Made by a program: the position numbers and the translations under genes. The notes under the pieces are model-generated. The model searched no databases. It worked only from the letters and a program-made list of their open reading frames with translations, and had not been told where the DNA came from. Of a DNA stretch of 64,000 bases, positions 8,967 through 12,825 are shown in pieces. The DNA is from a virus (lineage: Duplodnaviria; Caudoviricetes), in the IMG/VR virus record IMGVR_UViG_3300020050_015145, positions 1-64,000 of that record. The stretch is one strand, 5' to 3'. Position 1 is the stretch's first letter. Every line of letters starts with the position of its first letter.

Positions 8967-9026
8967 TTCCCCATATTTAAGTTTCGTCAATCCACTCGTT
9001 ATGTGCAATTTTATTTTTCATTTTTT

Positions 9027-9977
9027 TTACCCTCCCAAAAAATGATTTAATGATTTTCTATTCGGGTTATATTCGTAATCTTCCCAACTACACGAATTGA
9101 AGATTATCCTATTGTTTACATATCTTGTGTATGATTTTTGATACTTGTCTGACTTATTGTAAGGCATCACAAAAGGTTTGCATCCTAATTCCCTTAAAAA
9201 TTCAACTCTGTAATAGTCTTGTTCTGGAGTTGTATCATAGCCAATTAAGACAAAGAATTGCATATTTTGACAAGGTATTCCCCATTTGTTACATCGTTCA
9301 ATTCCTCTTATTATTACTCTTTCATCTTTGAACTGATCCCAAGCAAAAGTTAAATACTTCTTATTGAATTTAGAGTTTGAGTAATTAACTTTTGCTAATA
9401 ATTCGGCTTGTCTATCTGAAAGTATGCGAATATTTAAACCTTGAACAAAACACACTTTTAATTTTAACTCTGCAATCCTTTCTAAATTAGACTGCCAATT
9501 TGTGCCACCAAAAAAATCATTATCTAACAACATCAAATTTTTACCGCCTGATGGGTTGGTAAGTAGCTCGTCAATAGTGTTATAATTCTTTGGCTTTCCC
9601 TCCTTTGTTGGCACACAACAGAATGAACAGCTAAAACGACATCCTTTCATTGAAAATCCATAATGAAAAGGAGTGTTTGGGTATATTTCCCAATCCATTG
9701 TAGCAGCTTCAATTTCAGCAGGTAGTTTATTATAGAAATCTATTCCAGTTCCGCCAATCACCATATTATCGGGTATTTGTGGCATTTCTGAAAACTTAAA
9801 TATTTTACTTGCATAAATTTTATCGTATTGATTTGCAAATAAAATTCCCTCATACCAACTTACATCATCGCCAATAGATTTGTGATACCCACTAATCTTC
9901 ATTAGTGCTATGTTTGGAAATTGAACGCCTTGATATTCCGTTCCATCAACTTGATATATTCCTATTCGTGCCATCAA
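9027..9977 (-). CDS. Radical SAM protein (cassette 1 cargo)
   Basis: CxxxCxxC (CRFSCSFC), FPNIALMKIS N-terminus, LLDNDF, FVLIGY. Confidence 0.85.
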   Translation of the reverse strand: MMARIGIYQVDGTEYQGVQFPNIALMKISGYHKSIGDDVSWYEGILFANQYDKIYASKIFKFSEMPQIPDNMVIGGTGIDFYNKLPAEIEAATMDWEIYPNTPFHYGFSMKGCRFSCSFCCVPTKEGKPKNYNTIDELLTNPSGGKNLMLLDNDFFGGTNWQSNLERIAELKLKVCFVQGLNIRILSDRQAELLAKVNYSNSKFNKKYLTFAWDQFKDERVIIRGIERCNKWGIPCQNMQFFVLIGYDTTPEQDYYRVEFLRELGCKPFVMPYNKSDKYQKSYTRYVNNRIIFNSCSWEDYEYNPNRKSLNHFLGG

Positions 9978-10027
9978 TGATTTAATGATTTAATTGCCCA
10001 CGCACAAAAAATGAAAAAGAAAACAGA

Positions 10028-10160
10028 CACATAACAGCACATTGCCAAAAGTGGCGATGTAGTGCTAAAATCAAGTGTAGTGCTTCTAATTTTCATTTGT
10101 GCTATGTTCAAAATTTGTACTTCTAATTCGCCACCTTCGGCAATCTGCAAAACGTTATGT
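10028..10160 (+). repeat. attC-like hairpin element A
   Basis: CACATAAC-A-21 bp arm ... arm-AAAAC-GTTATGT; 18/21 matches between arms 10037-10057 and 10128-10148. Confidence 0.75.
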
Positions 10161-10505
10161 TTAATTGCTCGTTCCTCGCAACTCCGCTTCGCTAAACATA
10201 ACACAGTATTTGCGATAATAATTTAAAACCTCTGAGCGTAACCATTTCTCAGCAAAGTTTTTTAATTCATCTACTGTGTCGCCAAAGCCACTATACATTA
10301 CCCTGTTTTTGTATCGTATCATTAAAGTAAGTCCACAATTATTTGGCTTTATATCATCTCTAATACTTTTACTTCCTTTATCATAAATACCATCACAATC
10401 GTAACGTATATCAAATTCATACGCTCCTACTGTGGCTTTTGCTGTGGCATAATCAAGACCAAAAAACTTTGCTTGTTCTACCCAATTATTAATTTTTGTT
10501 TCCAT
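10161..10505 (-). CDS. Hypothetical protein lying in the loop and left arm of element B
   Basis: 114 aa ORF with A/T-rich upstream context. Confidence 0.65.
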   Translation of the reverse strand: METKINNWVEQAKFFGLDYATAKATVGAYEFDIRYDCDGIYDKGSKSIRDDIKPNNCGLTLMIRYKNRVMYSGFGDTVDELKNFAEKWLRSEVLNYYRKYCVMFSEAELRGTSN

Positions 10506-10560
10506 ATTAAATTCTCGTTAAGGTTTTAAATTACTACGCAAATACTGATACCGTTAGTGG
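10194..10560 (+). repeat. attC-like hairpin element B with an approximately 290 nt loop
   Basis: AAACATAAC-A-CAGTATTTGCG..AATTTAAAACCT ... AGGTTTTAAATT..CGCAAATACTG-ATACC-GTTAGTGG. Confidence 0.7.
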
Positions 10561-10606
10561 CAACCGTAGGACACCCGACACCGAGCATCCTACGAACCAC
10601 AAAAAA

Positions 10607-10885
10607 TTAAATCCTTGTATTGCCTTCTTCAAACGCTTCGGCAGGTGAAAATGATTTGTAGCCATCTTTGTAAACTACATAATAGCCACCTACTTGTGGT
10701 TTGTGCTTATGTAAATAATCTACTTCAACTCTAAAAGGTGCATAACCTTCTTCTTCGGGAGTAATAATTGCACTTCCATCGCTTTCACGATTTTCACCTT
10801 CTCCATCTCTTACAATGGATTTAATTTTTAAAGCCCATACTTCTTTATGGCTTCTGTACTTTGGCATTTCTACTGATACACTCAT
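10607..10885 (-). CDS. Small phage protein (cassette 3 cargo), candidate anti-defence
   Basis: 92 aa; GYYVVYKDGYKSFSPAEAFEEG motif. Confidence 0.75.
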   Translation of the reverse strand: MSVSVEMPKYRSHKEVWALKIKSIVRDGEGENRESDGSAIITPEEEGYAPFRVEVDYLHKHKPQVGGYYVVYKDGYKSFSPAEAFEEGNTRI

Positions 10886-10944
10886 ATTGTTTTTTTGTGG
10901 GTTTTATAACTCCGCCCAGAAGTTTTATCGTGAGAAAACGGCAG

Positions 10945-11030
10945 CCACTAACACGGGTTTGGCAAAATGGCTTTCCGACACACAAGCCAACGCACAAAAG
11001 CCACTTCGCCAAGCCCGAAAACGTTACCCG
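10945..11030 (+). repeat. attC-like hairpin element C
   Basis: CCACTAAC-A-21 bp arm ... arm-AAAAC-GTTACCCG; 18/21 matches between arms 10954-10974 and 10997-11017. Confidence 0.75.
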
Positions 11031-11085: not shown

Positions 11086-12825
11086 TCACTCTCGTTCCAA
11101 ACCCGCACTTCGGACACATACCCGCCCCAACGCCTCGGCCCATACTTTCATTTGCCTTGGTACCACACTGTTTCCGATAAATTTCTTTTGGTCGGTCTGC
11201 GTACCTTTCAAGACATAACCGGCTGGAAACCCCTGAATAAGCAAAAGCTCCTTTACCATCAGCATCCGCATATAAATATCCGCAATGCCCGCCGCCCGCA
11301 TAAACTGCTTGATTTTTACCATGGCCTCGCTGTCGGTGGAATTAATTTCCCAATAAGGCGAACCCGTGGCCAGCGTAACCATACCAATAGGCGCTTTGTC
11401 CTGACGGGCAATAATAACTGGGCTGGGCACTTCTAAGCTGTGCGTTGCGCCTCCGTGATTAGTCGTCACCAAATAATGATGGTGGTCCGTCACACGGTTG
11501 CCCGTGAGTAGAGTAGGAGCGGGTTCATCCAATGATTTCGGTAAGTTGCTGTGCTGATTGGTCATCAAATAACTGGAGCTTACCAAGCTAAACCTATCTT
11601 TGGTGGACAATGCTCCGCAGGGAACATCGGTACTGTGCGCCTCTTTTTCGGTGCCGTTGTATTTTAACAAAAACTCAGGGCTTACAATCGCGTGGCGGTT
11701 CTCAGTCGTCACCGTCAAACACGGTTCGTCCATTCCTCTCAAACGATTGTCATTGCTTCCTGAATAATACGTCATCACAAACGGTTCGGGCGTTACAAGC
11801 GACATTTTACTTTGTGTTGTAATCGTAGAGGCTGGATTGTCAATAGCCATAACCCGACAATCATCATTGCCCGAAAACTGACTGCTTAAAAACGGCTCCA
11901 CACTTGCCAACGAATGACTATCCGTCGTGGTCATGGCACCCGCAGGCACGTCCAATGCAACACACTTGCCTTCCGGATCTCCTGAATAATGTTTCTGCAA
12001 AAACTCCTTATCCCCCTTCACCACGTGCTTTATCAGGCCCGCAAAAATCCGCTTCAGCGTCTTTTCAACCAACGGTATTTTTCGGGTAAAAATAGATTCC
12101 CCTTTCTCCGAAAGGTCCAAAACCTCCCGTACCGGCATCCATTTTTTCAACTTCTCGTTATACATCGTAGAGGCTTTCGGGGTTTTTGCGTGTGTCGGCT
12201 CAGGCCATGCCACAGGCATTCCATTTTTGGAAAACATAGCATAGTACCTAAGCCTCGATGTATAAGCCCCGTAATCCGCTGCGTTCAATAGCCGATGCGA
12301 ATAACAATAGCCCAACTCCTCAATGTCCCGCGTCCAGCGCACGTACTCCCGCCCTTTTTGTCGGCTAATAGGCTTCCCTTTGTCGTCCAGCGGCCCCCAC
12401 GACATAAATTCCCGTACGTTTTCAACCGTAAAATAATCAGGGCTCAACGCCTTAATATACATCGGCATAAACTCCGCCAAACTGCGGCTGTCTCCGTCCC
12501 GAGGCTTACCACCCTTGGCGTTACTGAAGTTGGTACATTCCAAACTCGCATGAAGCACCACCAACACTCTACGCCCTATACGTTGCAATTTCTCCCGTTC
12601 TACCTTTGCCAATTCGGCTACTTTCTTCACTACGGCCATATCCCGAATGTCTTCCGTAAAATGATGCGTGTCGGGATGGTTGGCCGCGTGGCTTTCAATG
12701 GCTTTGGCATCGTGATTAACCCCTGCCAGTACCCGAAATTCAACACCTGGTACAGATGCCTGTTCAAACCCTTCGGGCACGCCTCCGGCTCCACAAAATA
12801 AATCTATGATTAAAATAGTTGTCAT
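11086..12825 (-). CDS. DNA (cytosine-5) methyltransferase with a repeat-expanded variable region
   Basis: DLFCGAGG, ASLECTNFS (PC-like catalytic motif), ENV, RLR and KFIGNSV motifs. Confidence 0.9.
   Translation of the reverse strand: MTTILIIDLFCGAGGVPEGFEQASVPGVEFRVLAGVNHDAKAIESHAANHPDTHHFTEDIRDMAVVKKVAELAKVEREKLQRIGRRVLVVLHASLECTNFSNAKGGKPRDGDSRSLAEFMPMYIKALSPDYFTVENVREFMSWGPLDDKGKPISRQKGREYVRWTRDIEELGYCYSHRLLNAADYGAYTSRLRYYAMFSKNGMPVAWPEPTHAKTPKASTMYNEKLKKWMPVREVLDLSEKGESIFTRKIPLVEKTLKRIFAGLIKHVVKGDKEFLQKHYSGDPEGKCVALDVPAGAMTTTDSHSLASVEPFLSSQFSGNDDCRVMAIDNPASTITTQSKMSLVTPEPFVMTYYSGSNDNRLRGMDEPCLTVTTENRHAIVSPEFLLKYNGTEKEAHSTDVPCGALSTKDRFSLVSSSYLMTNQHSNLPKSLDEPAPTLLTGNRVTDHHHYLVTTNHGGATHSLEVPSPVIIARQDKAPIGMVTLATGSPYWEINSTDSEAMVKIKQFMRAAGIADIYMRMLMVKELLLIQGFPAGYVLKGTQTDQKKFIGNSVVPRQMKVWAEALGRVCVRSAGLERE

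Follow-up and report, generated by a model that had tools for sequence, protein, structure and literature searches.

Genomic context of the hairpin

The window analysed here comprises 64,000 nt, namely the first 64 kb of a complete viral contig of 72,207 bp with direct terminal repeats (phage G000). Its genes are situated almost entirely on the minus strand. Several studies of freshwater, wastewater and biofilm metagenomes contain near-identical DNA. The region contains a long hairpin, designated element B, which encloses most of a small open reading frame (ORF114). The following features were assigned (window coordinates):

11086-12825: C5 cytosine methyltransferase, near the unit
10949..11026, minus: short site of the same family as element B, upstream of ORF92; depth spike, loose ends at 10949 and 11026
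10607..10885, minus: 92-aa ORF (ORF92, phrog_11049), the preceding cassette; 15-nt complementary ends at 10938-10952 and 10553-10567
10154..10556, minus: putative mobile unit of 403 nt with one gene and TAAC at both ends
10553..10556, minus: upstream TAAC core, common to the end of the preceding ORF92 cassette
10548..10552, minus: spacer between core and stem, 5 nt, a length as in the sites of the family
10521..10547, minus: 5' arm of the long stem, in the 5' UTR; invariant in 8 copies apart from compensated changes
10161..10505, minus: 114-aa ORF with its ATG at 10505; predicted beta-sheet plus long helix
10461..10473, minus: inner stem 1, 5' side; 13 bp perfect, partner 10251-10263
10432-10442/10281-10291, minus: inner stem 2, from the inverted-repeat search
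10251..10263, minus: inner stem 1, 3' side, from the inverted-repeat search and the folds
10204..10231, minus: 3' arm of the long stem, within codons 92-101; synonymous sites frozen
10193..10202, minus: GTTA core and extension (R'-like), coding for Val-Met-Phe; 5' arm of the terminal hairpin
10164..10192, minus: loop of the terminal hairpin, 29 nt, coding for most of the last ten residues
10154..10163, minus: extension and downstream TAAC core (R''-like); 3' arm of the terminal hairpin
10032..10157, minus: short site of the same family; 21-bp stem with two G·U and one G-G mismatch; loose ends of foreign contigs at 10032 and 10158
9027-9977: radical SAM protein, near the unit

Structure of element B

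An inverted-repeat search of the window identified the arms of the stem at 10204-10214/10537-10547 (11 nt, 100%) and its inner half at 10216-10231/10521-10536 (16 nt, 94%). One extra base at 10215 forms a bulge between the 11-bp and the 16-bp part, and the two arms are 289 nt apart. An earlier note on this DNA had described a stem of about 27 bp around some 290 nt, with the 114-aa ORF starting just inside the right arm and reading through the left arm. Both statements were borne out, the ATG at 10505 being situated 15 nt past the 5' arm. The division of the stem given there, 11 bp, one extra base, 4 bp with a mismatch and 12 bp, is correct for the first two parts only; the bulge is in fact followed by 2 bp, a G·U and 13 bp. 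This G·U on the minus strand (alignment columns 24/342) is the sole non-Watson–Crick position in the 16-bp part.

The in-silico folding of the single strand proposed in the same note yielded minimum free energy (MFE) folds that retain the stem of element B. The stem was kept when the minus strand was folded as RNA (z = -6.5) and when it was folded as DNA (-45.6 kcal/mol, z -5.7). The plus strand folded as DNA reached only -35.0 kcal/mol (z -3.6) and is about 10 kcal/mol worse than the minus strand. Two nested inner stems and a terminal hairpin are present in addition to what had been described before. The terminal hairpin (10193-10202/10154-10163) has 10 bp and spans the stop codon, which is located in its 3' arm (10161-10163). 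From core to core element B measures 358 nt. All but the last approximately 15 codons of the 114-aa ORF lie inside its loop, and the usual cargo position comprises 29 nt.

The enclosed open reading frame

The ORF114 family is small and consists of 10 clusters (53-96% identity), with three viral loci and one contig of a metagenome-assembled genome (MAG) labelled Pacearchaeota. In the core codons dS ranged from 0.8 to saturation and dN/dS from 0.1 to 0.4. By these substitution rates ORF114 is a real gene that is under selection as a protein. The AF2 model (pLDDT 78.5) predicted a beta-sheet followed by a long helix. Searches of Pfam, PHROG, NCBIfam, PDB or BFVD (Foldseek) and the ESM Atlas gave no match for ORF114, and nothing suggests that the protein is a recombinase.

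Two observations on single contigs may be added. A 49%-identical homologue of ORF114 (L028, 863-1177) is located on a 4-kb contig in the Pacearchaeota MAG bin; this is probably a phage contig within that bin. In metagenome run X14 one contig of low depth joined position 10515, the start region of ORF114 without the 5' arm, to position 10949 via 25 other letters, which suggests an arm-less ORF114 copy at the ordinary cargo position in another genome.

Conservation and history of the hairpin

The stem of element B is kept in eight distinct copies, the proteins of which differ by up to about 35%. In L008 the stem is perfect over 28 bp. In L001 and L002 a two-codon change (Arg-to-Ala) in the 3' arm shifts the bulge, and pairing with the unchanged 5' arm is retained. 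The terminal hairpin shows a compensatory double change from U-A to G-C (columns 364/400). Among the hairpin-bearing copies the last 26 codons had a dS of 0-0.07 compared with 0.8 to >1 in the core; when these codons were compared with those of homologues lacking the 5' arm (L007, L009 and L012), dS was 0.86-1.2. The structure of element B is conserved and compensated, and the nucleotides of its arms are frozen.

The inner long-range stems differ in register from copy to copy and for this reason escaped the consensus fold calculated with RNAalifold. In L008 a 15-bp stem of partly different sequence is found in shifted register near inner stem 1. Folds of the individual sequences were used for the inner stems in place of the consensus. 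By these folds the hairpin-bearing copies are mostly rod-like, with 52-65 long-range pairs in six of seven copies and 37 in L005. Their MFE values ranged from -86 to -121 kcal/mol, those of the arm-less homologues from -67 to -80 kcal/mol.

We considered whether the arms could be a chance inverted repeat, or operator half-sites bound as duplex by a DNA-binding protein that do not fold at all. The region is AT-rich and single 11-mers recur in it by chance. Neither proposal fits the z-scores of -5.7 to -6.5 or a repeat that is conserved with compensated changes over eight divergent copies, and the strand-asymmetric G·T bias reported below is impossible in duplex-only recognition. We regard this explanation as extremely improbable.

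The 3' arm is identical at 27 of 28 positions in L009 and L007, both of which lack the 5' arm, and the C-terminal residues for which the terminal hairpin codes have homologous counterparts in the arm-less relatives. The 3' arm is ancestral coding sequence, which makes it more likely that the site was formed around the gene. Judged from these alignments, the site was probably formed around the gene, or the end of the gene was fused early to a site; an insertion of the gene into a loop that already existed is less likely. Over its outer 11 bp the stem is nearly identical to that of a short site of 48 nt in L001 (2289-2336). The earlier note had proposed a second way of loading cargo, inside the recombination site itself. 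The position of the gene in the loop, the architecture of the family and the mobility of the unit agree with this proposal, whereas loading as the historical event is doubtful since the 3' arm is ancestral.

Boundaries and insertion contexts of the unit

In an all-against-all BLASTN comparison the homology to L005/L017 (92%), L001, L002, L003, L008 and L011 ended at 10153-10154 and at 10546-10556. In every copy the upstream limit of homology was at most 10 nt away from TAAC, and only in L008 did the homology extend beyond both ends, by 7-9 nt. TAAC is present at each end of the unit with one or two degenerate exceptions, namely GAAC in L002 and a missing upstream core in L011. The neighbours are different in each context and include dnaB, an N6/N4 methylase, an Xer-like recombinase and small unknown ORFs. 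The 22-nt junction predicted for a site without insertion, in which the flanks are joined across a single TAAC, was found verbatim in three viral contigs (L022-L024). In L023 this insertion-free junction is preceded by the upstream hairpin in a 98%-identical copy and followed by a homologous short site. The empty site predicted for the dnaB context was not found. As judged from these comparisons the unit is discrete and occurs at TAAC in many contexts. At either end the boundary lies somewhere in the four letters TAAC (on the plus strand GTTA); this is compatible with G|TT and is resolved to 4 nt only.

Among 50,697 phage records there was no DNA match for the region, and no Rfam family was assigned to it, the sole match being a chance miRNA (E 0.8). 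An exact-motif scan with the terminal hairpin yielded one viral and one relevant metagenome locus, and none in 185,579 species genomes. Three further metagenome matches to this motif were located in GC-rich bacterial genes and were discarded as chance. The scan of viral contigs with the 5'-arm motif gave no match.

In four metagenome runs contigs pile up 5-50 fold on the site sequences. Contigs from other genomes diverge exactly at 10032, 10158, 10553, 10949 and 11026, which are the edges of the sites. It follows that the sites are shared joints in natural populations. Neither a joint skipping exactly 10154-10556 nor a back-joint was present in the contigs of runs X7, X10, X13 and X14, a result that counts for neither side, as rare circles and transcripts are not visible in contigs. 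That no excised circle and no empty site in an otherwise identical genome were seen counts against recombination at the sites.

Small mobile units of mycobacteriophages known as MPMEs also carry one small ORF. MPME1 and MPME2 are ultra-small, have inverted repeats and occupy different sites in related phages (PMC3029335). The unit could accordingly be a tiny non-autonomous transposon moved in trans, either MITE- or MPME-like, with sub-terminal inverted repeats of 28 bp, or of the IS200/IS605 type inserting 3' of TAAC. With 403 bp and one small ORF it resembles MPME1 (439 bp, PMC3029335); furthermore, its insertion is next to one fixed tetranucleotide, which recurs at its own end behind a hairpin. 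Its repeats, however, are not terminal, as conserved sequence continues for 9 nt outside one arm and for 50 nt outside the other, and the arms are wholly different between members of the family. The phage does not contain a Y1 transposase, ORF114 contains no His and hence no HUH motif, its fold is not nuclease-like, and there is one copy per genome. The repeats of the MPMEs, in contrast, are short terminal inverted repeats and their insertion adds 6 bp (PMC3029335). MPMEs have neither a family of ORF-less sites nor TAAC/GTTA cores, and their sequence is not related to the unit. We consider a transposon of this kind unlikely. A retron (no reverse transcriptase seen), a mimic of CRISPR repeats (no host repeat found) and a Y1 transposon (no Y1 transposase in the phage) were rejected as candidates.

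A family of folded sites

Element B belongs to a family of sites which, read on the gene-sense strand, consist of a variable extension with TAAC, 5 nt, a stem of 11-28 bp enclosing a loop, 1 nt, and GTTA with a variable extension. A scan for this geometry found 29 sites in the loci compared and 0-3 in shuffled sequences. The first, loose pattern scan had been no better than the shuffles, and the signal emerged only once the spacer lengths were fixed. All scanned sites are in gene-sense orientation except for two weak G·T-rich matches in L002 and L017, which were taken as chance. About 20 of the sites are distinct; they are distributed over at least seven phage contigs and include the published 'attC1' of P12002L. 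The stems are entirely unlike in sequence, and only the cores, the spacers and a few positions at the base of the stem are common to the family. Element B has the cores, the spacers, a stem of at least 11 bp, the sense orientation and a complementary next extension, i.e. all features by which the family is defined.

The sites form arrays: L020 and L022 have four each, and G003, a genome that is 98% complete, has nine. The genome of the window contains exactly three, all of them within 1.1 kb. The cargo of the arrays frequently includes methyltransferases (in the window, L003, L008 and P12002L), a radical SAM enzyme and small unknown proteins.

Within an array the extension of GTTA pairs with the TAAC extension of the next site across the ORF. 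The mean length of this pairing was 12.3 nt compared with 6.1 nt for non-neighbours; it was at least 8 nt in 16 of 18 pairs, and the complementary ends range from 8 to 20 nt. By virtue of these paired extensions a cassette closed as a circle would fold into one long hairpin with an internal loop of 5 x 1 nt at the core.

ORFs in the loop are not confined to the window. A 316-nt site in L022 (8305-7990, identical to L024 436-121) encloses a complete, unrelated ORF of 68 aa, and a 227-nt site in L020 (7941-7715) encloses an unrelated ORF of 52 aa coding for a hydrophobic, membrane-type protein. The latter site is followed by the same terminal hairpin as in the window, the long-range arms being changed on both sides. 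Several mid-sized sites, in L020, L023 and L003, have the start codon in their loop, from where the ORF continues across the 3' arm. The cassette of the window is the extreme case of such nesting.

A possible role in the mRNA

In the sense strand of the 20 distinct sites we counted 29 G·T and 3 A·C mispairs, both of which had been scored alike. By this excess, selection acts on a folded single strand of gene-sense polarity, be it RNA or DNA; the gene-sense strand is the strand selected to fold.

The stems could therefore have their function in the mRNA, as clamps that expose the AU-rich start region in a loop or as double-stranded sites of about 20 bp for processing or stability, of the RNase III type, with the genes being shuffled by relaxed homologous recombination at these conserved motifs between genes, in the manner of the PeSLs of T4-type phages. 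For the gene in element B this would mean that the 5' UTR pairs with the 3' end of the coding region and thereby stabilises or gates its own mRNA. The 29:3 ratio of G·U over A·C on the sense strand is in line with such a role, as are the uniform sense orientation of the sites upstream of or around ORFs, the ORFs in L020, L023 and L003 that start in the loop and run through the 3' arm, and the many stems of 19-22 bp. The shuffling is made plausible by carriers that lack recombinases but have exonuclease/annealing-type functions, by sites common to contigs with different flanks on both sides and by the precedent of the PeSLs (PMC2839356, PMC4122927). Homologous recombination does not explain, however, why each ORF has private complementary ends of 8-20 nt abutting GTTA and TAAC, and the insertion behind dnaB in L005/L017, where TAAC stands alone and no other site is near, is left unexplained. 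In addition, spacers fixed at 5 and 1 nt and 4-nt cores that do not vary indicate recognition of the folded site by a protein. We take the mRNA explanation as a serious alternative, possible rather than probable. A role in RNA and a role as recombination site are not mutually exclusive, and the hairpins probably also act in the mRNA. Neither a sigma-70 promoter nor an intrinsic terminator was detected above background at the sites, sigma-70 being possibly not the promoter type of the host.

Search for a recombinase

The only tyrosine recombinase of the phage of the window is an integrase of 410 aa, which is coupled to a repressor and located 10 kb away. No IntI was found in this genome; its integrase scored 44.5 bits with TIGR02249, for which the cut-off is 265. 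In G003, which contains nine sites, and in G004, a complete genome carrying the unit, no PF00589 protein was found. Both results count against recombination at the sites. Small Xer-like tyrosine recombinases of 277-295 aa are encoded in L002 (573-1460) and L003 (4440-5273), at distances of 50 nt and 1.1 kb from the unit; the best NCBIfam model for both is XerA, with scores below its cut-off. The four carrier phages share almost no proteins. As there are carriers without a recombinase and few shared proteins, a dedicated enzyme would have to come from the host or from another element; otherwise relaxed homologous recombination would have to be assumed. With no IntI, and with two complete or near-complete carriers without a tyrosine recombinase, we can only infer the mechanism of recombination.

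A proposed one-gene cassette recombined at a folded site

From the evidence presented so far we propose that 10154-10556 is a one-gene mobile cassette of a family of attC-like folded sites, and that it is recombined at the core of the folded single strand. We put the probability of this explanation at roughly one half. The sites of the family would be interspersed in the accessory-gene regions of freshwater, wastewater and marine phages that are otherwise unrelated. A recombinase from the host or from a co-infecting element would cut cassettes at the TAAC/GTTA core of the folded single strand and rejoin them there, an enzyme of the IntI/Xer type being the best guess, and exchange might proceed through a circular intermediate.

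The joints of phage mosaics are rarely defined; here they coincide with a recognisable folded site with fixed cores, which is common to phages with almost no shared genes and delimits single accessory genes. Should the sites recombine in the form of folded single strands, they would represent integron-like gene capture that needs no phage enzyme. The nested ORF indicates that such a site can overlap a coding sequence over its whole length. A stretch of DNA that is under protein and structure constraint at the same time is a clean natural case for the conflict between the two.

A more far-reaching version is that tailed phages have a system of cassette exchange distinct from integrons, in which a cassette of about 400 nt would leave as a rod-shaped circle, single-stranded or RNA-templated, and be processed by a host enzyme other than IntI. 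The hairpin, read at a TAAC/GTTA core with a bulge of 5 x 1 nt, would then be the sole requirement in cis, and since genes may reside inside it, site and cargo would merge into a single object. We consider this version rather doubtful.

Comparison with known systems

Like the attC sites of integrons, the sites described here are imperfect hairpins with ...AAC/GTT... cores, variable in sequence and conserved in structure. As in integron cassettes, one or a few ORFs each lie between complementary core extensions. The attC clusters without an integrase (CALINs) are similar in that no integrase is nearby and one strand folds better; CALINs have been described in phages (Qi et al. 2023, PMC9892861).

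There are differences from attC as well. The spacers are 5 and 1 nt, compared with about 5 and 5 nt in the two canonical phage attC sequences that we parsed. The stem has 11-28 bp, and its irregularities consist of a single bulge or of a G-G mismatch at position 4 of the stem; extrahelical bases of the canonical kind are not clearly present. Of the consensus RYYYAAC/GTTRRRY, TAAC/GTTA is present in nearly all sites, but the outer three purine/pyrimidine positions are not kept (ACATAAC, GTTATGT). Unlike in usual integron cassettes, the genes are on the folding strand and often start inside the loop. Finally, the usual length of attC sites is about 57-141 bp, and their variable terminal structure is short and non-coding; element B has 358 nt from core to core with a coding loop of 289 nt, whereas the neighbouring sites of 78 and 126 nt fall within the usual length. 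Element B consequently does not belong to the canonical attC sites with respect to spacer geometry, length and integrase. The attC-like hairpin of the earlier note, taken there as a recombination site with a gene in its loop, is thus partly supported, namely with regard to architecture, family and mobility, but not on these three points. Search programs for attC that employ length limits will miss such sites.

The P12002L_attC1 site provides a link to published data. It is located between two methylase genes on the gene-sense strand, has the geometry of the present hairpin family, and its 11-nt loop motif is that of sites in L001 and L022. HattCI had called this family member an attC, and it was the only one of six assayed sites without verified IntI1 recombinants (PMC9892861), a result that counts against recombination. 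The adjacent attC2 did recombine with IntI1 (PMC9892861); over 9 nt, its core extension could pair with the one beyond the methylase gene. If our explanation is true, phage 'attC' calls that fail with IntI1 would be explained. Two further sites of the family flank the gene of the gp54 DNA methyltransferase in the same Polaribacter phage (L030, 38936-38879 and 38090-38035), apparently beyond the published ones.

The sites also resemble the PeSLs of T4-type phages, which are short conserved promoter/terminator stem–loops (a terminator stem–loop with an early promoter) between small accessory ORFs in plastic regions and serve as exchange points for sequences that are otherwise unrelated (Arbiol 2010, PMC2839356; Comeau 2014, PMC4122927). 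PeSLs act through homologous recombination of conserved sequence (PMC2839356, PMC4122927). In contrast, the stems of the present family have only cores and geometry in common and each ORF has its private complementary ends; furthermore, none of the PeSLs described encloses an ORF.

A precedent for a folded phage site used by a host enzyme is CTX-phi, in which a forked hairpin of the single-stranded DNA constitutes a two-arm attP with an unpaired centre for the host XerCD, so that no phage enzyme is needed. CTX-phi differs, however, in being a filamentous single-stranded DNA phage that integrates at dif; here we are dealing with cassette exchange in double-stranded DNA tailed phages.

Further observations in the neighbourhood

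Directly behind ORF92 there is a strong GC-rich hairpin (10557-10600), a 98%-identical copy of which is situated behind a diverged ORF92 homologue in L023. Its 3' arm overlaps the TAAC extension, which therefore has two possible partners, a local one and the GTTA extension 370 nt upstream, so that alternative structures can form. Two tandem copies of a 30-nt motif, with a spacing of 37 nt, were noticed in the loop of the short site that follows downstream of the unit (10062-10128); a similar loop with repeated AGCAC-type boxes is present in a site of L022 (7727-7603). The repeated motif may serve in protein binding or as a promoter. An 18-nt AT-rich inverted repeat (9009-9026 and 10006-10023) brackets the radical SAM gene, which is also situated between complementary GTTA/TAAC extensions of 8 nt (8998-9005 and 10027-10034); by these two features the gene looks like a further cassette of the array.
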